Shown one piece after another: positions 1-43,807 of a DNA stretch of 64,000 bases; position 1 is the stretch's first letter; each line of letters begins with the position of its first letter. The stretch is from NCBI GenBank assembly GCA_020241865.1, contig GCA_020241865.1_4709.1; one strand, 5' to 3'. The stretch is from a phage. The position numbers and the translations under genes were made by a program. The notes beneath the pieces were generated by a model. That model ran no database searches and had not been told where the DNA came from. It saw nothing but the letters and a program-made list of their open reading frames with translations.

Positions 1-132
1 ATTCCTCCGGTTGGTTCTGGTTGCGGTAATATCGGTTACGGACAATCCGAAACAATCCAGCCTCAGTGGGTACGCGCACAAATCAAACAGTATCTTGCCA
101 CCGTACCGAACGTTCATTTCTACTTGTTCTAA
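1..132 (+). CDS. 3' end of a gene truncated by the window edge; C-terminal fragment related to the C-termini of 3808..4449 and 4561..5277
   Basis: Frame 1 is open from nt 1 to TAA at 130-132 (IPPVGSGCGNIGYGQSETIQPQWVRAQIKQYLATVPNVHFYLF); shares a G-x-CGNI ... P-x-WV-x-Q motif with the two minus-strand paralogs; convergent with gene 198..572 across hairpin 149..180. Confidence 0.4.
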   Translation: MPPVGSGCGNIGYGQSETIQPQWVRAQIKQYLATVPNVHFYLF

Positions 133-148
133 CGCAACGGTAACATAA

Positions 149-180
149 CCCTCTCCCTTCCCTGCTGGGTTGGGAGAGGG
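149..180. terminator. GC-rich hairpin (9-bp stem CCCTCTCCC/GGGAGAGGG, 14-nt loop) between convergent genes; member of the recurrent hairpin family
   Basis: Perfect inverted repeat 149-157/172-180; loop ttccctgctgggtt nearly identical to loops at 5290-5303 and 43785-43798; followed by CTTATGCTGTTATG. Confidence 0.6.
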
Positions 181-197
181 CTTATGCTGTTATGCTA

Positions 198-572
198 TTA
201 ATGTTCGTTCCAGATGGCATCTTCCGGTGGAACAATAGGATCTTTCTTCGGCATTGATGGCACTTCATGGCGATGTTTACGGAACTGCCTATCAATAACC
301 TCACGAAGCCGGTACGCATCAACCCATGTTGATTTATTGAACAGCTCCAATGTCACAGTTAATCGTGTTCTTGACATTGAATAGCTTTTCTTTGCAATCA
401 AATTGGGATAATTCAGTTGAGCGAACCACGCACGTATTTGTGCTTCGGTAAAAGCGATGCTGTAATAACTAAGTTTACCGTCATTAAAATCGTGCGCGTG
501 GGTGTAACGTCCAGCGTAACGCCAGACAAGATGCACATTCAGATCGATCCATGGTGGGGTGGTATCAGCCAT
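198..572 (-). CDS. hypothetical protein
   Basis: 124-aa ORF with ATG start, tightly packed with co-oriented neighbours; no recognisable motif. Confidence 0.5.
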   Translation of the reverse strand: MADTTPPWIDLNVHLVWRYAGRYTHAHDFNDGKLSYYSIAFTEAQIRAWFAQLNYPNLIAKKSYSMSRTRLTVTLELFNKSTWVDAYRLREVIDRQFRKHRHEVPSMPKKDPIVPPEDAIWNEH

Positions 573-581
573 GTGTTACCC

Positions 582-1151
582 TCAACGATTCTTCATCACT
601 TTACCCAGGCTTTCGATATTATCCCAAAAGCGATTTTTACTTGGCGCATCGCCGACGATAACCGACATCAAATCACGACGTTCGCGACTGATGATGCCTT
701 GTGATTTCCAGATCACCATCGTCCAGCAAGCGGCCAGAACGAACAGATGGTTAATGCTCGGTTTGGTTTGCGCGATGAACGCAAGCCATGCCCAGATACC
801 GGTGTATACTAGCGTCACTAAAAAGAGCGAGATTGTTGCAACGACAACAACGAAGTTTTGGACAGCGGGTTGATTAGCGTTATCATGAATAGCGGTAAGA
901 TCAGGAAGATTACCTTCAACTGAACTCGTTTCATCGATTTCCAATTCTTCGATTTCTTTTCGTGTGTCAGGAGCTAATCCAGCATCATCGAGATGCTTTT
1001 TTAACCGCTGTATGCTTAATCGTTGACCGACAGGAATGTTGATGTTGTCGTAACTATTAAGCGCATCAACCAGGGAGCGTCCATCAACGAGAACCAAGCT
1101 CGCGGTACCCATCGTTTGCGGTTTTATTTTGTAAAGGTCTTTTACTTTCAT
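582..1151 (-). CDS. hypothetical membrane protein
   Basis: 189-aa ORF; long hydrophobic stretch (VVVVATISLFLVTLVYTGIWAWLAFIA ... FVLAACWTMVIW) consistent with two transmembrane helices. Confidence 0.5.
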   Translation of the reverse strand: MKVKDLYKIKPQTMGTASLVLVDGRSLVDALNSYDNINIPVGQRLSIQRLKKHLDDAGLAPDTRKEIEELEIDETSSVEGNLPDLTAIHDNANQPAVQNFVVVVATISLFLVTLVYTGIWAWLAFIAQTKPSINHLFVLAACWTMVIWKSQGIISRERRDLMSVIVGDAPSKNRFWDNIESLGKVMKNR

Positions 1152-1172
1152 GTAGACACCACCTCCAACGTG

Positions 1173-3785
1173 TTAAGCGTCCGGCGTAAAATCAAAAGGA
1201 ATGTCCGTACGAATGATATCATAACGTTTTCCGAGGAAATAAAACTCTTCGGGAACCTGACCGGGAATAATGCTATCACCGATGAACTGCGGATACGCCC
1301 AGATGTACTGAGTGAGTCCTTCGAACATATCCAGGTTATTTGCGTGGTTACCCATGATACGTTTCCAGAGTTCGCGTTTATACGGCGTTTTAACATCGAA
1401 ACCATAAAGCGGTGCAAGATCTTCACCAGGAACAAATCCCAGGTAATAGTGAATCTGACTAACCGGGAAACCAAGCGTATCTCGCGGAATGGTGATCGCT
1501 TGCTCAGCTTTGGTGACATGCGTTTCAATAATCCAGTCGTAACACTCTGAATAGAACCGATCGAATTTCTCTGGATTATACCACGCTTTGGGAAGATTCA
1601 GTTTCTCCGTGAACGCATTCGACATGATCGTCGGTAAGAACGGAAGAACACCGGTTTTGATCTGCGTGTATTTCGATTTTACCCGGTTAGCCAAATTCCA
1701 GCAACTGTATCCTAACTGTTCGTTACAAAACTCAACGTAGAGATCGTAATCACCGCCGGATAATGGGTTGTTGATATCACCAATGTCTGCAGCGTATTTG
1801 TTGGGATATCGGTTATTGAAAGCCAGTTTGGTTTGGTAATCGTAGATACACGGTTTGTTGTTCGCTGTATTGATCCACCACCAGGGTTCACCCACCTGTA
1901 CACAAATGTCCTGGACATGAGGGTAAATAATATCGGCAAACGCGGTTAACACATCCCCTAACCACGCCATCGCCTGTTGGTTACATGGAGACAGCAACCA
2001 GGATGGTGGTGTATATCCGGTTGCTGCGATGTTTCCTTCCCAATCCTGCTGCGCCCACTCGAACGGGCATGCTGTACTCATCAATTCGTAACTTAAACTG
2101 ATGGTGACAGAGAAATGGTGTTTTGCAGCATATGCGGCGAAAGCTTCATGCCACGCGATACAGGGTGGATTTAATACATCCGTGGTGTTCACCAGTAACT
2201 TACCCGCACTTGGCGTCCAGACAGTATCGTAGAAATGCGACATTCCAACATAATGCACTAATTCATCTTGATACCCCGCATAAACCAGGTTCTCAAATAC
2301 GCGCTCCGGCGTGATGTTGTAATGGTCATCATAAGCGGTTATCGCACGAAGTTCGTGTGGTGTACAGTGGTGACGATTAACCGTCATTTCCTGATACACC
2401 CCATCGATAGGAAGAATCTCGAGGGTTAAACCGAGGTCGATTGGCGTTTCCAGATAGGTCGTTTCAGTCGCACCTTCCTTATAATGTCGAGAACTCATGC
2501 TGAACATCAACGATGCTACCGATTCGAGTTCGATAGGCTCGTCAGCATAGAACCCCGCCATTGCGTCATTGAAATCGATCGTTACGATTGCGCTTCTACC
2601 GTCTTCAGAGACATCGGTGGCGTATCGGGTTAATGAGATATACTGACGGCTATCGTCTTTGTGTACGACGGTTAAAACCGGCGGGTTTTCGGTATCTGCA
2701 AAGTTACGCTGATCGCCAGTAAACGTGATCTTCGCTTTAAAGATCAAACCGAATAACGACGTCATGGGATCATACGCAATACAACCGTGATCCAGCGTAT
2801 CCGTTGTCCGCCATTCTATCCCGACCAACCCGTTAGCGGTATGGCATCGCATATACGCATTAAGTACCATGTCTTCACTGACAACCGCGAAGTTCTCTGT
2901 TGACTGACCGTTGATAATCCAATACATCGGTTGCCAGAGGTTACGCGTACCTTTTGCGTAGCGGTAGGTTGGTGCGCCTTTGGGGTTGCCATTATTAAGA
3001 TGGAATACTGCAGTACCTTGATAATGGTCGTTCGTATTAATCGGAACACTGTAAGCGTCACCGAGGTCCGTACGTTCCACCTTCGTGACCGTTGCGTTTT
3101 CAAATAACCCACGCAGCGCGGGTAAACCGATATCTTCAGGCGCGTTTTCTCGACGAATCGCATCCGCGATGCGATGGGCTAAGGCGGGGTAAATAGCTTC
3201 ACCCTGTTGTAGGTTTGCAAGACCTACAAAGCGATCAGGGTCGATACCAGCAATCAATAACTCAACATCACCCTTCGTTCTATCGTCGTTAAGATATTTC
3301 AGTCCGGTAAGGTCAAGATGCTGAATAAGCGACAACAGGTTGTATTTACGGTTTTCAACAGTTAGTACAAGATCGCCTGCCCAAACCAAACTTCCCTCAT
3401 CCGCTGTTACTTTAACAGATTGTCGGCCTGTGGTAGACGTTGTTGTCGTTTTATTTAATTGTCCTTGTAGGAAGTCGGTTGCGAGGTCAAAGGCAATGCC
3501 GTAACGGTCAGCGACCGCTTGCATGATTTCACGTAACTGGGTATCTTCTTCAATGATAATCTTGACAGGTATTCCCAGGAACGCTTTAGCGAGGTCTCGT
3601 TTAACCAACGAGACGAATACGGATTTGTAGTATCGGCTTCCATCTTTCCCTTTAAAAAGAATGGAGGTTGTTTCGGGTGCCGATAGAACACGTGCAAATA
3701 CAACATCGTCGGAAGTAAGAGAAAGTCCGTTTTTCTCGTTGACCAATCCTAGTATTTCATTTTGCGCGGTTTCATGTAACTTCAT
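1173..3785 (-). CDS. tail fibre/tailspike protein with shared N-terminal anchor module
   Basis: 870-aa ORF; N-terminal ~150 aa (VKRDLAKAFLGIPVKII ... YGIAFDLATDFL) paralogous to the N-termini of 9406..9954, 10090..11859, 15493..16323 and 54310..55764; large unrelated C-terminal domain. Confidence 0.7.
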   Translation of the reverse strand: MKLHETAQNEILGLVNEKNGLSLTSDDVVFARVLSAPETTSILFKGKDGSRYYKSVFVSLVKRDLAKAFLGIPVKIIIEEDTQLREIMQAVADRYGIAFDLATDFLQGQLNKTTTTSTTGRQSVKVTADEGSLVWAGDLVLTVENRKYNLLSLIQHLDLTGLKYLNDDRTKGDVELLIAGIDPDRFVGLANLQQGEAIYPALAHRIADAIRRENAPEDIGLPALRGLFENATVTKVERTDLGDAYSVPINTNDHYQGTAVFHLNNGNPKGAPTYRYAKGTRNLWQPMYWIINGQSTENFAVVSEDMVLNAYMRCHTANGLVGIEWRTTDTLDHGCIAYDPMTSLFGLIFKAKITFTGDQRNFADTENPPVLTVVHKDDSRQYISLTRYATDVSEDGRSAIVTIDFNDAMAGFYADEPIELESVASLMFSMSSRHYKEGATETTYLETPIDLGLTLEILPIDGVYQEMTVNRHHCTPHELRAITAYDDHYNITPERVFENLVYAGYQDELVHYVGMSHFYDTVWTPSAGKLLVNTTDVLNPPCIAWHEAFAAYAAKHHFSVTISLSYELMSTACPFEWAQQDWEGNIAATGYTPPSWLLSPCNQQAMAWLGDVLTAFADIIYPHVQDICVQVGEPWWWINTANNKPCIYDYQTKLAFNNRYPNKYAADIGDINNPLSGGDYDLYVEFCNEQLGYSCWNLANRVKSKYTQIKTGVLPFLPTIMSNAFTEKLNLPKAWYNPEKFDRFYSECYDWIIETHVTKAEQAITIPRDTLGFPVSQIHYYLGFVPGEDLAPLYGFDVKTPYKRELWKRIMGNHANNLDMFEGLTQYIWAYPQFIGDSIIPGQVPEEFYFLGKRYDIIRTDIPFDFTPDA

Positions 3786-3807
3786 TAAAAACCTCAGCCC
3801 TTTAGAA

Positions 3808-4449
3808 TTAAATGTACTGCTTACCGCCCACGAAGGAAGTTAACCAGTTCCCGCTGACGAGTTGTGATACCCAGCCTGGAACGGCTCTACCATTCTGGCT
3901 CATGATGTTACCACACCAACCAGGGAATCCGGGACGGATGTAATAGAAAGTTAAATTGTAGAGATGGCAATTCCATACCGCAACGTTATGTTTACCAGAA
4001 ACCGCTTTAAAGACAAACGCGACAGGTAACGGAGACGATAACAATTCGGTCACAGGGACGGCTGACCAGTTCGCATTCGCGTTCCATGGTTGCCAGGTAT
4101 GGCTGCGCGAGTCGCAATATACGTTACCGTTGTTACCGCGCCCACCCGCATTCCACCACAGCGACGGACTCATGTTCTTAAGTGAGGTAAATTGCTGCGG
4201 TGGAATATTAGGAATAATAACAGGGTTGGTACCTTGCCCATGTTTCTTTTCTTTTGCGTTCACATACCCGCTTATCGATTCGAGGTATTTGACACCAGGA
4301 TAATTATTCTGGACTTGTGTCGCAATATCACGAACATCGAACGTCCAGCAGATCATGGTGTTGTAGTAAGCATCGGTGTTGTCGTACCATGCGTTACCAT
4401 CTTGTAAACGTGCGCCACTATTCGGTGTTTTATCTGTGTTTATAGCCAT
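3808..4449 (-). CDS. small protein of the tail-fibre locus, paralog of 4561..5277
   Basis: 213-aa ORF; C-terminal 40 aa (GFPGWCGNIMSQNGRAVPGWVSQLVSGNWLTSFVGGKQYI) nearly identical to the C-terminus of 4561..5277. Confidence 0.55.
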   Translation of the reverse strand: MAINTDKTPNSGARLQDGNAWYDNTDAYYNTMICWTFDVRDIATQVQNNYPGVKYLESISGYVNAKEKKHGQGTNPVIIPNIPPQQFTSLKNMSPSLWWNAGGRGNNGNVYCDSRSHTWQPWNANANWSAVPVTELLSSPLPVAFVFKAVSGKHNVAVWNCHLYNLTFYYIRPGFPGWCGNIMSQNGRAVPGWVSQLVSGNWLTSFVGGKQYI

Positions 4450-4547
4450 AGTGTTGTCCTATACTGCGATGATTGAGATATCGGATGCCGGATGTGTGTT
4501 GCCATCAGGTGGTACGTACAGAAACACCCACAGATAAAACAGTAGCT

Positions 4548-4578
4548 TATCTAACTTCAATTAAATTGAAGTTAGATA
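4548..4578 (-). terminator. 31-bp perfect palindrome (15-bp arms) overlapping the stop codon of 4561..5277; terminator or operator-like site
   Basis: tATCTAACTTCAATT-A-AATTGAAGTTAGATa with every position paired; on the minus strand it is followed by a U-rich tract (CUGUUUUAUCUG). Confidence 0.4.
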
Positions 4579-5277
4579 TTGTTTACCTCCAACAAACGAC
4601 GTTAACCAATTACCTGAAACAAGTTGCGATGCCCAGCCAGGCACTGCCCTACCGTTCTGGCTCATCACGTTACCTGCCCATCCCGGAAAACCAGGTCGGA
4701 AAATATATACTTGAATATGTGTTAAAGCGTTATCATTACCACCGCCAACAGCAACGTTACGACTCCCAGATGACGGGAAATATTCTTTTAAGAACAGAGG
4801 ATCGGTTGCTAATAAAGATGCGGGCCAAGGGTTCGCAGATGCATCAACATCGAATTCGGTCCATCGCCATTTACGTCCCGTGTCGAACCATGTCGATGTA
4901 CCACCACCCCTCACGACAAGATTGCGCGCATCATGGACATTATAAATTGATTCGATGTTACGCCATCCACCTTTTGCAGCGTTTGCTGCATAGCAAACCG
5001 CATTACCACCATTCTTCTTCTCGTAAACGGTTCGTTTGATATGAACACGGTCGATGAACGCTTCACCGTATTTGTTGACGAGCGTTTGTGCGATATCACG
5101 AAGATCGTGCATGTGAAAAGCGATGTCTTCGTTATGGAACCATGTTGTCTGGTTCCAGACGGTACCGTTTGGTTCGGCACACATCGATCGGATATTGTTG
5201 CGTTGATTAATCGCGATAAAACCCATTGTATACCTCGTTCCTATTCTCAAAAAGGAAATTTCATACGATGACGCCAT
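4561..5277 (-). CDS. small protein of the tail-fibre locus, paralog of 3808..4449
   Basis: Track ORF 4561..5313 trimmed to ATG at 5277 (MASSYEISF), because the first 12 codons are the translation of hairpin 5282..5311; the 3' arm of that hairpin (GGAGGAGC) sits 4 nt upstream of this ATG as a Shine-Dalgarno sequence. Confidence 0.55.
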   Translation of the reverse strand: MASSYEISFLRIGTRYTMGFIAINQRNNIRSMCAEPNGTVWNQTTWFHNEDIAFHMHDLRDIAQTLVNKYGEAFIDRVHIKRTVYEKKNGGNAVCYAANAAKGGWRNIESIYNVHDARNLVVRGGGTSTWFDTGRKWRWTEFDVDASANPWPASLLATDPLFLKEYFPSSGSRNVAVGGGNDNALTHIQVYIFRPGFPGWAGNVMSQNGRAVPGWASQLVSGNWLTSFVGGKQYLTSI

Positions 5278-5281
5278 AGCA

Positions 5282-5311
5282 GCTCCTCCTTCCCTTACGG
5301 GTTGGAGGAGC
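5282..5311 (-). terminator. GC-rich hairpin (8-bp stem GCTCCTCC/GGAGGAGC, 14-nt loop) between genes; its purine arm doubles as the ribosome-binding site of 4561..5277
   Basis: Inverted repeat 5282-5289/5304-5311; loop ttcccttacgggtt matches the loops of the hairpins at 149 and 43776. Confidence 0.55.
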
Positions 5312-5319
5312 ATACTTAA

Positions 5320-5826
5320 TTACTTACTGATAACCTCAACGGAGTTGGGATCAGCGATCAATGCACGATCGGTAGAACAGTTGAAGAAGACCATACCAAC
5401 ACCATCACCGTTCGAGTTCAGGGTTGAACTTACATAAGACAGGGTTGGTTTATTCATGCGGTAGAAGCGTTCGCTGGTAGTGGTATTGAACCCCAGATCA
5501 ACGTAGTCTTTCACCGTGGTGTACAACTGTGTGGACTCGAAAACGGTTACCGGAGAGTCAACGGTAAACTGACTGCCTTCATCCACAACCAGAACTTTAT
5601 CGTTCCAGATTTCAGTGGTTGAAAACTTCGGTTTCCAGTGTTCGAATTCCTGGGTTGCGCCCCAGCAAGAATAAACAGCGAGATTGCTGTTCTTCTCAAC
5701 AGGTTTCAACCCCACCAGTTGTGTCAGGTCTTTATCCAGGTTCGGTAAGCCTTCCAGCGTAGCGCACCCACCCAGAGAAAGTACCATCAACATACCAAGA
5801 ACGATCGCGCAGAGTTTTTTCATCAT
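5320..5826 (-). CDS. putative lipoprotein (candidate receptor-blocking or superinfection-exclusion protein)
   Basis: Start placed at tandem ATG ATG (5821..5826) preceded by AAGGAAA; signal peptide MMKKLCAIVLGMLMVLSLGGC with lipobox-like LGGC; sits inside the receptor-binding locus. Confidence 0.6.
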   Translation of the reverse strand: MMKKLCAIVLGMLMVLSLGGCATLEGLPNLDKDLTQLVGLKPVEKNSNLAVYSCWGATQEFEHWKPKFSTTEIWNDKVLVVDEGSQFTVDSPVTVFESTQLYTTVKDYVDLGFNTTTSERFYRMNKPTLSYVSSTLNSNGDGVGMVFFNCSTDRALIADPNSVEVISK

Positions 5827-5874: not shown

Positions 5875-8800
5875 TTACTTTTTGAGCGCTTTAAGTTCTT
5901 CTTCCAACGCTTCCACTTTTGCCGTAAGCTTCTGTACTTGTTTGATTAATGGAACCACCAAACGTTCGTACATGACACCTTCAGCGACGAGTCCGTTAGA
6001 AGAAACGATAGCGGGGTCATCTTCTTCTGTTGCATCACGCCAGTGCACGTACTGCGGTGCGATCTCGCCAACCTCTTCAGCAATCAACCCATACCAACCC
6101 CAATCCTTGTTGTCTGCTTCACATGTAGAACGATACCACACAGGACGCATCTCCAATACTTTATCCGCTTGTTCATCCGTGATATTCTCGATATCTTTCT
6201 TATAGCGACGCGACGACGTTGAACGAAACACATTGTTGATCCCAGAAACAGGACTGATATACATGTTAGCCCCGCTGGTTGTAGTGCTAATGTCCCATAC
6301 CGCAAATCCGCCGTTACTCCCATTTTTTACGATCAATGTGTTGGCAATAATGTCCAGGTTATTGTCGTAACCGGTTAATTGTCTTTCCGTTACATAACTG
6401 GATAGATTGACCGAGTAGTTCTTACTGTTATAACAACGACGCCATCCTGGGCTGTTGGTACTGCCATTATAGTTGTCGTAGCTATAAATGAACTCGGAGT
6501 TGGTTTTCGCACCACTGACGGAAGACGTGGTTGCGGTCGTAACACGGATGGTATAGTTTGTCATCCCGAAGCTAACGACCTCGATAACAGCACCAGCCAG
6601 AGGGATAATACCGCACTTGGTTTCACTGTCTGGGATGTATGCGCTGTCGGCAGCTGCGAAGGAGCAACGTGCGACCCAGGCGCGGGTATTGAATGCACCT
6701 TGGTTTTGCAACAACGTGATAAACGATGAGGTCGTAATCGAGCTGTTATTATCACCGGTGATCAACCAGCCGGTCGGGCATGCGGTTGCGCCAACGTTTT
6801 TCGCTGTTAACGTGATGTTCTGCGATCCGTCGAAGGCTACGCCACTGATAGTACGCGCAGTCTGCAGTTTCGTCGCCGTTGCTGCGTTCCCTGATGTGTT
6901 CTGGTTCCCTGCGGCGTTAACACCCGGCAGATTGATATTCGCACTACCGTCGAAAGACACCCCACCAATGGTGCGGGCGGTTTTCAGTTTTGTCGCCGTG
7001 GCGGCATTACCGGTCGTGTCTTGGTTACCGGTGGTGTTTACCCCAGGTAGGTTGATATTGGCCGTTCCGTTAAATGAAACACCACCAATCGTCCGTGCCG
7101 TTTGCAACTTCGTTGCGGATGCCGCATTCCCCGTGGTGTTTTGGTTACCTGTTGTATTCACACCTGGGATACTATCCTTAGATGTGTAGATCTGTGCCCA
7201 TTCCGACCAGTTCGCATCTGATGCATCACGACGCGAACGTAGGTAAGCTGGAGCGTGTGCGCCTGAAGTACCTGACCATCCAATAAGGATCTCACCTTCA
7301 CCTACTGCGGTTGCTCCTTTAAGATGAACAACGTTACCGTAGGCTGTAGGGTATCCGTTATTGTACGCTTCATACATCTGGATACCCGTATTGCTGCCCT
7401 GGGTCGCATTAGCTAAAGCGGTGACCCGTCCCTTGGAAGCGAGCACGTTAATGCTAAAGCTAATATCGGTTGTACCGTCAAAGGCGACCCCATTAATCCT
7501 CCGCGCTGTTTGGAGTTTCGTGGCAGTAGCCGCATTACCAGAGGTACTCTGATTGCCTGCTTTGTTCACACCTGGTAAATCAATGTTGGCGGTTCCATCA
7601 AAGGACACGCCCCCTATGGTTCTCGCCGTCTGAAGTTTTGTTGCTGAACCAGCGTTTCCGGAAGTGCTTTGATTACCCGCCGCGTTGACACCTGGTAGGT
7701 TAATGCTAGCAGAACCATCAAAAGAAACTCCACCGATCGTAATAGCTGTTCGCAACTTCGTGGCTGTCGCAGCGTTACCCGTCGTATTCTGATTACCAGC
7801 TGCATTGACGCCAGGTAATGCGATATCAGCTGTGCCATCGAACGCGACACCTCCGATTTTACGGGCGGTTTGTAGCTTGGTTGCTGTAGCAGCATTACCG
7901 CTGGTATTTTGCGTACCGGCTTTATTTACACCAGGAAGATCGATGTTAGCAGAACCATCGAAGCTGACGCCACCTATCGTTCTTGCAGTAGCAAGTTTAG
8001 CGGCTGTAGCAGCGACGTTACCGACTTTTAACCATTCTCCCCATGGACCATCCACACCGTTCCATGATGCCGTTAAACTGCGCACGTATATGTTTCCTGT
8101 ACGTACTGTGTAACGTTGTGTTCCACCGAATTGACCGGCTGGGAGCACTTCGATGTAACCTACAGCATTTGCTTCAGGGAAATTGTGGGCAGCATCGGCA
8201 TTCGTTGATGTTTGTTTGGACCAAATACCCACAGACGCTTCAACCGGACCGTAGGTATTCAGGTTTGCATCGGTTGGGAGTTGTCCTCTGAAACGACGGA
8301 ACGACGAGGCGTTAATTCCCAATATCGTTTGCATCCCTTCAACACCGGACTGCTGTAAGAGAGCGCGTGCGGTAGAAGTGATCGTTGCAAGCGCTACTTT
8401 ATCAGCACCTGTGAAATACGGTAATTTATTCGCTGATGTTGTTAGTCCAGAAAGGGCTGTGAGCAAAGCGTTCAGCGGTTGTTTGCCAGCTAAAGCGTTT
8501 GTTACAGTTGTCGCGAAGTTAGGATCGTTACCTAACGCTTGCGCCAATTCATTGAGTGTGTCCAACGCTTCAGGAGACGATCCGACAAGCGCTGCGATAG
8601 CACGCATCACAAATTCGGTATTCGCAATCTGCTGACTTTTATCGCCTTCGGCTGCGGTTGGTGTTGTCGGCTTATCGGTAAATGCCGGGCTAGAAAGATC
8701 CGCTTTAGCGCTAATTTGTGTTGCTAGGACTTTCCCGGCTTTCGCGGATAGTGCGAGTACTTCACTATCACTGTTCGTCGCCGAGGTTAACTGAACTAAC

Positions 8801-9399
8801 CCTTTACGTGTGGTACTAGCGTCCACTGCTGTGTACTTTCCTTTCGCAACATCCATCACAGCTTTAACTGCTTTTGATGTTGCGGCTTTGGTTTCGTCGT
8901 CACTATTTGTTTCGCTGCTAAGGATCGTTAATCCCCGTTTCTCGGTGGTCGCATCTGGTAAGAATGCGTCACTAACAACCTTCAATTCGATCGCATCGGT
9001 ATTGCTTACGACAACAAATACCTGACAATTTAACACACGTCCTGCCCCTTCGGAAGGCAGTGGTTTGTACCCTTCTGGCGCATTGCCGACAACGACAAGT
9101 TCACCCTGATCGTCGTACAGACCGATCTCACGCACCCAGAACCCACCTTGACTGGCGGGAATAATGCCTTCAACAACAATCCGGGTTGTGTCGTCAACAT
9201 CAATGTGGATGTTAGAAACTTCCCCACGATAAACTTCGTGTACGAGCGCTGTTTGGCTAACATCGGGGGTTGGTGTAGAGCCGTTTCCGTCACCAACAGC
9301 AAAATGTGTGATTCTTAGTTTCTCACCGTCAGGAAGTAGCGCTGCGGCAATACGTTCAGCGCCTTTATCGGTAATGACCGTTTTATAAGTTGTACTCAT
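5875..9399 (-). CDS. long tail fibre: P2 gpH/Stf-like N-terminus, Phage_fiber_2 tandem repeats, C-terminal S74-type intramolecular chaperone
   Basis: 1174-aa ORF; N-terminus MSTTYKTVITDKGAERIAAALLPDGEKLRITHFAVGDGNG is collinear with P2 H / lambda Stf N-termini; eight ~40-aa repeats (ATATKLQTARTIGGVSFDGSANI(D/N)LPGVN); C-terminus has the STSSRRYKKDIENI motif and a coiled-coil tail typical of self-cleaving chaperone domains. Confidence 0.85.
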   Translation of the reverse strand: MSTTYKTVITDKGAERIAAALLPDGEKLRITHFAVGDGNGSTPTPDVSQTALVHEVYRGEVSNIHIDVDDTTRIVVEGIIPASQGGFWVREIGLYDDQGELVVVGNAPEGYKPLPSEGAGRVLNCQVFVVVSNTDAIELKVVSDAFLPDATTEKRGLTILSSETNSDDETKAATSKAVKAVMDVAKGKYTAVDASTTRKGLVQLTSATNSDSEVLALSAKAGKVLATQISAKADLSSPAFTDKPTTPTAAEGDKSQQIANTEFVMRAIAALVGSSPEALDTLNELAQALGNDPNFATTVTNALAGKQPLNALLTALSGLTTSANKLPYFTGADKVALATITSTARALLQQSGVEGMQTILGINASSFRRFRGQLPTDANLNTYGPVEASVGIWSKQTSTNADAAHNFPEANAVGYIEVLPAGQFGGTQRYTVRTGNIYVRSLTASWNGVDGPWGEWLKVGNVAATAAKLATARTIGGVSFDGSANIDLPGVNKAGTQNTSGNAATATKLQTARKIGGVAFDGTADIALPGVNAAGNQNTTGNAATATKLRTAITIGGVSFDGSASINLPGVNAAGNQSTSGNAGSATKLQTARTIGGVSFDGTANIDLPGVNKAGNQSTSGNAATATKLQTARRINGVAFDGTTDISFSINVLASKGRVTALANATQGSNTGIQMYEAYNNGYPTAYGNVVHLKGATAVGEGEILIGWSGTSGAHAPAYLRSRRDASDANWSEWAQIYTSKDSIPGVNTTGNQNTTGNAASATKLQTARTIGGVSFNGTANINLPGVNTTGNQDTTGNAATATKLKTARTIGGVSFDGSANINLPGVNAAGNQNTSGNAATATKLQTARTISGVAFDGSQNITLTAKNVGATACPTGWLITGDNNSSITTSSFITLLQNQGAFNTRAWVARCSFAAADSAYIPDSETKCGIIPLAGAVIEVVSFGMTNYTIRVTTATTSSVSGAKTNSEFIYSYDNYNGSTNSPGWRRCYNSKNYSVNLSSYVTERQLTGYDNNLDIIANTLIVKNGSNGGFAVWDISTTTSGANMYISPVSGINNVFRSTSSRRYKKDIENITDEQADKVLEMRPVWYRSTCEADNKDWGWYGLIAEEVGEIAPQYVHWRDATEEDDPAIVSSNGLVAEGVMYERLVVPLIKQVQKLTAKVEALEEELKALKK
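6620..8100 (-). repeat. diverged tandem coding repeats (Phage_fiber_2-type) inside the fibre gene
   Basis: Five plus three ~120-nt units encoding the GNAATATKLQTARTIGGVSFDGS motif; they generate the antisense pseudo-ORFs at 6617..7189 and 7805..8113; boundaries approximate. Confidence 0.7.
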
Positions 9400-43775: not shown

Positions 43776-43807
43776 CCCTCCTCCTTCCCTGTTGGGTTGG
43801 AGGAGGG
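43776..43807. terminator. hairpin of the recurrent family (CCCTCCTCC/GGAGGAGGG, 14-nt loop); covarying copy of the hairpin at 149..180
   Basis: 9-bp stem; loop ttccctgttgggtt; flanks ACATAA ... ATATGCTGTTAT are conserved with site 149 while the stem differs by compensatory changes. Confidence 0.6.

Follow-up and report, generated by a model that had tools for sequence, protein, structure and literature searches.

Two related genes with a shared Pro/Gly/Trp-rich block in the tail-fibre cluster of a Goslar-like jumbo phage

The window analysed here, a stretch of 64,000 nucleotides of phage DNA (GenBank assembly GCA_020241865.1, contig GCA_020241865.1_4709.1), begins with a short plus-strand gene end and a run of minus-strand genes that leads back to a tail fibre gene. 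Two adjacent genes of this run, here called paralog A and paralog B, encode related proteins and are the subject of this report (Table 1). The phage is closely related to Goslar, a nucleus-forming jumbo phage, as judged by 95.7% DNA identity at 89% query coverage between window bases 1-5400 and Escherichia phage vB_EcoM_Goslar. Goslar, a 237-kb jumbo phage of the genus Goslarvirus, has been placed in the Chimalliviridae (10.64898/2026.04.21.720040). Its annotation lists gp083 (a macro-domain protein) on the plus strand, then a terminator, and gp084, gp085, gp086, gp087, gp088, gp089 (tail fibre assembly) and gp090 (tail fibre) on the minus strand. The window keeps this gene order except at two points, namely an extra gene (paralog B) between the homologs of gp087 (paralog A) and gp088, and a fibre of a different type. 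Comparisons within the Goslar-like group cover four genomes: the window, Goslar (L001) and two further relatives referred to as L002 and L003.

Paralogs A and B are homologous from end to end. Both open reading frames (ORFs) exist, and BLASTP with compositional adjustment aligns their products over 221 columns at 38% identity and 53% positives (E 1e-34), a similarity that goes beyond low complexity. The initial annotation had described proteins with related C-terminal ends and differing N-terminal parts; the relatedness of the ends is borne out, while the difference of the remainder was overstated, as the bodies themselves show ~32% identity within the Goslar-like group. The closest agreement lies in a near-C-terminal block made up of the final ~42 residues, where 38 of 42 residues are identical and the shared peptide reads RPGFPGW[C/A]GN[I/V]MSQNGRAVPGW[V/A]SQLVSGNWLTSFVGGKQY[I/L]. 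The DNA encoding this block is only 72% identical between A and B, and 25 of the 38 identical residues are specified by different codons. By the Nei-Gojobori method (NG86), the proportion of synonymous differences (pS) in the block is 0.91 and hence saturated, against a proportion of non-synonymous differences (pN) of 0.088. Given the saturated pS, the low pN and the differing codons, we conclude that the duplication is old and that the block peptide is under purifying selection; recent gene conversion is excluded, since the synonymous sites of A and B are saturated within one genome.

Paralog A is the ortholog of Goslar gp087 (YP_009820772.1, HOV27_gp087, annotated as a hypothetical protein), to which it is 95.8% identical at equal length and in the equivalent position upstream of gp086, with the block conserved; unlike the window, Goslar has gp087 as its sole copy, the B slot being deleted there. 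For B, tblastn against 50,697 deposited phage records found no ortholog, only paralogous matches, and its N-terminus MASSYEISFLRI is also present in P0003, which represents a second allele type of the same slot (see below).

On sequence grounds, A and B belong to a small uncharacterised family and go back to an ancient duplication within it. Searching 5.8 billion protein clusters by word index gave four relatives, an exhaustive search with a profile, covering 1.84 billion representative proteins, gave 11 family members, and a second profile search brought the family to a total of ~20 clusters. Among deposited phage genomes, a member is carried only by Goslar, Serratia phage PCH45 and Salmonella phage SPLA10, and the family is confined to Goslar-like and PCH45-like nucleus-forming jumbo phages of Enterobacterales, plus metagenomic homologs. 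No family member has a Pfam domain or an informative name; A, B and all 14 aligned members are without a match in Pfam, PHROG and NCBIfam, and a profile search of PDB sequences with the family was equally negative. Against the family profile A scores 284 bits and B 276 bits, and against a hidden Markov model (HMM) of the block A scores 95.8 bits, with B at a similar value (Table 1).

The block is the most conserved part of the family. Its signature is FPGW..(V/I)(M/L).QNG..VPGW.SQL..G(N/H)WL(T/S).(F/Y).GG.(E/Q)YL, in which F-P-G, P-G, Q-L and L are invariant across the aligned members, and between the Goslar-like group and the PCH45-like plus metagenomic group the family alignment gives 52% identity for the block and 17% for the body. 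In long homologs of the PCH45 type (316-370 amino acids) an extra domain of ~90-150 residues comes after the block, which is therefore internal there and not the C-terminal end that it had initially been taken for. The members from PCH45 (YP_011108444.1, 370 amino acids) and SPLA10 (WNT47125.1, 218 amino acids) share both body and block with A and B and lie directly after a fibre gene with an S74 chaperone. They differ from A and B in their body (~17% identity), in the extra C-terminal domain of the PCH45 type (here ~130 residues, with the block internal), in the replacement of the block Trp residues in the short SPLA10 type, and in the neighbouring fibre, which in the PCH45 type is an ortholog of Goslar gp025, unlike the fibre next to A and B.

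Table 1. Features at the start of the window, with their positions, strand and the evidence for each
Feature	Position	Strand	Evidence
3' end of Goslar gp083 homolog (macro-domain gene), 43 codons and stop	1..132	+	Identity to gp083
Hairpin between convergent macro gene and minus-strand operon	144..186	-	-30.6 kcal/mol, z -5.6; terminator in Goslar record
gp084 homolog, 124 amino acids, function unknown	198..572	-	97-99% amino acid identity, four Goslar-like genomes
gp085 homolog, 189 amino acids, function unknown, highly conserved flank	582..1151	-	Comparison with Goslar-like genomes
gp086 homolog, 870 amino acids	1173..3785	-	Pfam PF25613 (2e-44), PF23844 (1e-10), PF23845 (4e-85)
Paralog A, 213 amino acids, Goslar gp087 homolog	3808..4449	-	ORF present
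Conserved Pro/Gly/Trp-rich block of A, residues 172-213	3811..3936	-	Alignment with B
14-bp perfect palindrome centred on the TAA stop of B, B-A junction	4548..4578	-	-15.6 kcal/mol, z -4.1
Paralog B, 238 amino acids; ORF open up to 5313	4561..5277	-	ORF present
Conserved Pro/Gly/Trp-rich block of B, residues 194-235	4573..4698	-	Block HMM 97.3 bits
Hairpin between gp088 homolog and B	5282..5311	-	-25.4 kcal/mol, z -4.95
gp088 homolog, 167 amino acids from MKKL start; ORF open up to 5862	5320..5823	-	
Tail fibre, 1174 amino acids, heads cluster	5875..9399	-	Pfam PF12571, PF03406, PF13884

Among the four Goslar-like genomes, the genes around the paralogs are strongly conserved, with 94-99.5% protein identity for the homologs of gp084, gp085, gp086 and gp088. 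Paralog A is 75-96% identical and the slot immediately upstream of it 38-97%; this slot holds two alleles, a B type and a P0003 type, that are 38-42% identical to each other. The fibre is 66-88% identical and mosaic. Between the window and L003, the body of A shows a saturated pS of 0.62-0.76, while pS is 0.035 in the block and 0.23 in the adjoining gp086 homolog. Because of this contrast we conclude that the body of A was swapped by recombination with a breakpoint at the block. The A/B body is, as these comparisons indicate, a hypervariable and exchangeable cassette.

Copy number in the two slots differs among the relatives. Both copies are retained in the window and in L003. In Goslar, the segment that corresponds to window positions 4502-5222, essentially gene B, is deleted, and the intergenic region between gp087 and gp088 (L001 10450-10626) is the scar of a lost paralog of the P0003 type, of which the 5' remnant MASSYEISFLRIETR* can still be read. 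L002 has an intact gene of the P0003 type and a pseudogenised A copy. This A-type pseudogene (L002 2441-3082) begins with GTG and is interrupted by a stop codon after ...SPSL; in the gene calls it is split, with a 97-amino-acid ORF as the only part listed.

We modelled A with AlphaFold2 in two runs, based on 6 and 14 aligned sequences, which reached a mean predicted local distance difference test score (pLDDT) of 74.3 and 81.6 and a predicted template modelling score (pTM) of 0.73 and 0.77, respectively. Both models show a confident β-sandwich over residues 1-172 and a final strand at residues 209-212, and residues 1-172 are predicted to form a jelly-roll body resembling a carbohydrate-binding module (CBM). 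The block (residues ~173-208) is the sole long low-confidence stretch of the monomer models, with 10-residue mean pLDDT values of 36-57 (6 sequences) and 46-62 (14 sequences), behaviour that in such models is typical of segments that fold on a partner. Rather than a free C-terminal tail, the predicted block is an excursion between the last two strands, and the last four residues rejoin the β-sandwich. A structure search of BFVD returned the Goslar and PCH45 proteins followed by weak matches to pectate-lyase, CBM96 and tail proteins. The β-sandwich CBMs used for comparison (DNRLRE/CBM96 chondroitin-sulfate 8wab_B, alginate 7vbo_A and CBM15 1gny_A) differ from A and B in sequence, at 4-10% identity, and have no counterpart of the conserved 36-residue excursion; a binding site in A and B is not identifiable from them. 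We take the predicted CBM similarity as a lead, and not as proof of glycan binding.

Published mass spectrometry (MS) data on Goslar bear on whether the family reaches the virion. In virions purified on CsCl, gp087 was detected by 4 peptides at 28.6% coverage, and its low/median/high estimates were 12.7/19.1/30.0 copies per virion, compared with 29/43/68 for the gp090 fibre, 3/4.5/7 for gp086, 491/737/1158 for gp088 and ~3-7 copies for gp085 (Table S4, 10.64898/2026.04.21.720040). The estimate for gp087 is thus of the same order as that for the fibre. One gp087 peptide, AISTDKTPNSGAR, is the N-terminus after removal of Met and therefore confirms the start codon of A-type genes. The block peptide AVPGWASQLVSGNWLTSFVGGK is not among the peptide-table rows listed, which is uninformative as to whether the block is retained in the mature virion protein.

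In all ten multi-gene loci examined (the window, Goslar, L002, L003, PCH45, SPLA10, L007, L008, L009 and L010) a family member lies within the tail-fibre cluster. The Goslar-like order is fibre, (Tfa), gp088, the upstream slot, A and gp086; A and B point the same way as the structural genes on either side, and the gaps to these genes are short. In the six PCH45-like loci, the member lies 30-44 nucleotides downstream of a fibre of 575-576 amino acids with an S74 chaperone. The PCH45 fibre is the ortholog of Goslar gp025 and not of gp090 (33% identity over the full length, E 2e-106). Apart from the family member, the proteins of the PCH45 tail module have no BLAST-level match in the window.

Sequence variation in the family does not follow that of the fibre tip. 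Between the window and Goslar, paralog A retains 96% identity although the distal ends of their fibres differ, the window fibre carrying an S74 chaperone and the Goslar fibre being gpS-like with a separate Tfa. Conversely, between the PCH45-like loci L006 and L007 the fibre and the baseplate gene are conserved (93% and 97% identity), but the family member reaches only 58%; it ranks with the most variable genes of PCH45-like phages. Because co-variation with the fibre distal end is lacking, a fibre-specific chaperone and docking to the fibre tip are both disfavoured, and the comparison fits an independent specificity element better than a chaperone dedicated to one fibre.

Several further observations concern the fibres and their modules. 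The PCH45 fibre (L005 7226-8956) corresponds to Goslar gp025 (L012 4463-6511; S74, YomR-like), and the PCH45 module of proteins of 822, 159, 887 and 576 amino acids has its counterparts in Goslar gp029, gp028, gp026 and gp025. The Goslar module is followed by the endolysin gene and lies ~75 kb from the family gene, and the fibre beside the family gene resembles P1 gpS according to the annotation of the Goslar record. The latter fibres are mosaic: those of the window and L003 end in an S74 chaperone, while that of Goslar (L001 11591-15565) is gpS-like with the separate Caudo_TAP protein gp089, and L002 likewise has a Caudo_TAP gene (456-1040). Internal repeats in the fibres give rise to many off-diagonal BLAST matches. 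Serratia phage Moabite carries a hypothetical protein of 175 amino acids, gp269 (L011 4824-5351), whose similarity to the long PCH45-type members (~30% identity) is restricted to their extra C-terminal domain. Its gene occupies a syntenic slot. A phiKZ gp131-like structural gene precedes this slot, and a convergent gene for a phiKZ gp164-like baseplate protein and a RecN-like gene follow it. The arrangement suggests domain shuffling at the Moabite/PCH45 slot in phiKZ-like phages.

Putting these lines together, we propose, at a probability of roughly 0.5, that A and B are low-copy, virion-associated accessory subunits for host recognition, probably glycan-binding, in which the block serves as a constant interface. 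The location in the fibre cluster, the CBM-like predicted body, the hypervariability of this body between flanks of 94-99.5% identity and the presence of gp087 in virion preparations support the outline of the initial annotation for A and B, which saw adhesin-like tail proteins with a conserved attachment region; its alternative of fibre-assembly proteins, and docking to the C-terminal tip of the fibre, are both disfavoured, as A and B do not co-vary with the fibre tip. In mechanistic terms, the subunits would sit on the tail-fibre or peripheral-baseplate apparatus with the variable body contacting the cell surface, and the conserved excursion of 36-40 residues, rich in Pro, Gly and Trp, would hold the subunit on a conserved virion partner or hold subunits together. 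Two diverged copies would then give the window phage two specificities, and in relatives with a single copy (Goslar, L002) the range would be narrower or simply another one. The paralogy of A and B, the selection acting on their block, the exchange of bodies as cassettes, the shared synteny, the turnover of copies, the predicted fold and the detection of gp087 by MS are documented here or in the published data; carbohydrate or receptor binding, anchoring by the block and the identity of the partner are what we infer from them.

A number of observations weigh against this proposal. The virion signal is weak: thymidylate synthase, which is non-structural, reaches a similar estimate of ~20 copies in these MS data, and according to the authors non-virion assemblies were purified along with the particles. 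In addition, gp087 lies outside the cryo-electron microscopy model and is undiscussed in the text (10.64898/2026.04.21.720040). As to the fold, the jelly roll is generic, Foldseek against the PDB found no match below E 0.01 (its top matches being picornavirus capsid jelly rolls), and CBM sequence families gave no match in Pfam, NCBIfam or the PDB. In receptor-binding proteins the attachment end is usually N-terminal, and here it would be near the C-terminus. Both Trp residues of the block are replaced in some members, PCH45-like ones among them, by Ser/Asn, Ser/Leu or Lys/Ala. The family is, from the loci compared, tied to tail-fibre clusters, yet in the two lineages the fibres concerned are non-orthologous. 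Lastly, a six-frame scan of the window and of Goslar 14-50 kb (gp22, gp23, gp31, gp33 and gp34) revealed no similarity between the block and DUF7941 linkers or any other sequence there besides A and B, and we rejected the notion that the block mimics such a docking linker.

The nearest models for a subunit of the proposed kind come from two sides. The tip adhesins of the gp38 type (T2, T6, S16) are likewise small, Gly-rich and encoded beside the fibre, with variable receptor-facing parts and a constant attachment part, and they are likely a functional analogy for A and B. Gp38 attaches by its N-terminal domain, has its Gly-rich motifs in the receptor-binding C-terminal part and folds as a polyglycine-II sandwich. 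The polarity of A and B would be the reverse, their predicted fold is a jelly roll with the Gly-containing block at low confidence, the family does not co-vary with the fibre tip, and the 14 aligned members gave no Pfam or PHROG match of any kind, the gp38 adhesin profile included.

The second model is provided by the DUF7941 filament proteins (Goslar gp22, gp23 and gp86), which belong to the same phage group and neighbourhood, gp086 being the next gene after A. Goslar gp086 has been described as a host-recognition protein and one of ten DUF7941 proteins, which are proposed to form head-to-tail filaments that are anchored at the peripheral baseplate and bear carbohydrate-binding or carbohydrate-hydrolysing domains; the peripheral baseplate itself is mostly unmodelled (10.64898/2026.04.21.720040). 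The likeness is one of kind, that is, carbohydrate-binding carriers anchored at the peripheral baseplate, with a flexible segment docking on a neighbouring subunit. A, B and their homologs differ in having no match to PF25613, the DUF7941 domain found in the neighbouring gp086 homolog, and their block has no detectable similarity to the DUF7941 proteins of the window or to Goslar gp22-gp34. The neighbours of the PCH45 member show no DUF7941 match.

A bolder version of the proposal, which is speculative and on balance unlikely, takes the excursion as a universal 'plug' that mounts interchangeable lectin-like heads on a conserved socket in the peripheral baseplate or fibre, possibly in the as yet unmodelled peripheral baseplate or in the DUF7941 filament cloud. 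If so, phages would exchange heads by recombining at the plug sequence and tandem copies would provide two specificities per virion, and the Goslar-like and PCH45-like chimalliviruses would possess a distinct host-range cassette system that is anchored C-terminally. The family is a candidate host-range determinant, being hypervariable, cassette-exchanged, copy-variable and detected in virion preparations, at a time when host recognition by nucleus-forming jumbo phages is poorly understood and the peripheral baseplates of Goslar and PhiKZ are largely unmodelled. Its conserved segment offers a handle for interaction mapping and for engineering by head swapping. The A gene was already present, unannotated, in Goslar, and we found no literature discussing gp087 or its homologs; the family is undescribed, although the kind of protein proposed, a small accessory receptor-binding protein encoded in a fibre cluster, is familiar.

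We consider it quite unlikely that the roles of the two parts are exchanged, with the excursion itself forming the ligand site (an aromatic platform for a common Enterobacterales surface structure, or a membrane-interacting element) and the β-sandwich serving as scaffold or attachment. Such a role would agree with the conservation of the Trp/Phe/Gly-rich block across phages of E. coli, Salmonella and Serratia, with the fact that aromatic residues typically line CBM binding sites, and with the divergence of the neighbouring tail proteins of the two lineages, which is too great for an obvious conserved docking partner. However, the residues of phage adhesins that contact the receptor are normally their most variable part, and here variability and cassette exchange reside in the body. 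The substitution of both Trp residues in some members also speaks against such a ligand site, and the block has no confident placement on the fold.

It is comparably improbable that A and B are intracellular accessory proteins, acting in counter-defence or host takeover from a variable island, and that the virion signal reflects contamination. Presence/absence variation, paralogy, rapid divergence and a narrow distribution are also typical of anti-defence islands, the MS level of gp087 resembles that of a metabolic enzyme, and A and B lack a signal peptide. Against an intracellular role speak a position in the fibre cluster that is conserved in two distant phage lineages, the co-orientation of A and B with closely spaced structural genes, and the fact that tail proteins are the viral structural neighbours of the CBM-like fold. 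The Moabite slot, set between phiKZ gp131-like and gp164-like baseplate genes, points the same way.

Also improbable is a function as non-structural tail-fibre chaperones that act in the infected cell and leave only traces in the virion, even though small genes directly downstream of fibre genes often encode chaperones, the family adjoins fibres in all loci, and the copy number estimated for virions is close to what contaminants reach in these MS data. An intramolecular S74 chaperone is already built into the window fibre, and gp089 of Goslar is a separate Caudo_TAP protein; searches of Pfam, PHROG and NCBIfam with the 14 aligned members matched neither Caudo_TAP (PF02413) nor any other chaperone family. 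A chaperone would be expected to follow its fibre, and the identities given above (96% for A across different fibre tips, 58% for a member beside a fibre of 93%) show no such co-variation; tandem diverged paralogs with a hypervariable body are likewise unexpected for a chaperone of one fibre.

That the common block arose by recent gene conversion or recombination between tandem copies, or as a DNA or RNA element, and not through selection on the protein, is very improbable. The copies do lie in tandem, and the block does serve as a recombination junction between alleles, as the comparison of the window with L003 indicates; but the codon analysis of A and B rules out conversion as the cause of the common block, and the block protein is conserved as far as the distant PCH45-like phages.

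The initial annotation had counted a third, convergent copy in the plus-strand fragment at the start of the window, and had read the three as paralogs that share a C-terminal docking motif and bracket the first fibre gene. The fragment is the end of a macro-domain gene. Its 43 residues are all identical to the C-terminus of Goslar gp083 (residues 144-186), and full-length gp083, which also matches phrog_335, matches Pfam Macro (PF01661) at 24.1 bits over residues 40-158, above the cut-off of 22; the stretch GSGCGNIGYG, which contains the supposed G-x-CGNI motif, falls within this match. As the window carries only the last 43 codons of the gene, the domain itself lies mostly outside it.

The resemblance of the fragment to A comes down to CGNI...P.WV, with 8 of 17 identities and one gap in the best alignment (pairwise E 0.05). 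Shuffled versions of the fragment reach an equal score against full-length A in 163 of 2000 cases (8%), and against the block alone, which was picked post hoc, in 44 of 2000. On the family block profile the fragment scores 1.5 bits, compared with ~96 for A and B. When all 64 kb were scanned with this profile in six frames, A and B alone came up, the fragment not being among the matches. The residues that the fragment does share, C, I and V, vary within the family, and the invariant F-P-G, P-G, Q-L and L are absent from it. Macro-domain proteins are also absent from the results of the exhaustive family profile search (1.84 billion representative proteins). A and B are therefore true full-length paralogs, the fragment lies outside their family, and the reading of three bracketing paralogs is, short resemblance notwithstanding, virtually untenable.

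The gene taken for the first fibre is no classical fibre either. The product of 1173..3785 has an N-terminal DUF7941 filament module followed by NCTSP_N and a TIM-barrel glycosidase-like domain, and it is 97-99% identical among the relatives; the real fibre is the gene that heads the cluster, whose product combines a collar domain at the N-terminus with fibre repeats and, at the C-terminus, an intramolecular chaperone of the S74 type. In practical terms the outcome is a correction of the annotation: there is no bracket of three paralogs, and the 'first fibre' is a DUF7941/TIM-barrel protein.

The gp088 homolog, which always lies between the fibre and the paralogs and is 94-98% identical among relatives, starts with MKKLCAIVLGMLMVLSLGG and then C, that is, with a lipoprotein-type signal peptide and lipobox; its only match is phrog_9559. 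At ~490-1160 copies per virion, Goslar gp088 is among the most abundant unmodelled proteins (Table S4, 10.64898/2026.04.21.720040). It might be a membrane-vesicle contaminant, an exclusion lipoprotein of the Llp/Cor kind or a true virion lipoprotein.

In L003 (9889-9991) and P0004, the stop codon of B is replaced by AAA and the ORF runs on for 34 codons (KLLFYLWVFLYVPPD..., hydrophobic), ending just before the start of A. The same 34-codon frame is also open in the window (intergenic positions 4450-4560) and in L002. We considered read-through of the B stop codon into this frame and rejected it, as coding constraint is not evident and we estimate the chance of such an open frame at ~20%; its openness is probably fortuitous.

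A strong Shine-Dalgarno sequence, GGAGGAG, lies 7 nucleotides upstream of the ATG of B at 5277. Because this sequence forms part of the 3' arm of the hairpin at 5282..5311, the hairpin may couple termination with translational control. A scan for sigma-70 promoters gave fewer sites than shuffled sequence, a result that carries no information in a phage that has RNA polymerases of its own. Three strong minus-strand hairpins in the window, with cores at 156-173, 5288-5305 and 43783-43800, share the sequence CCAACCC-N4-GGGAAGG, against 0.01 occurrences expected, and all three are placed just downstream of minus-strand genes.

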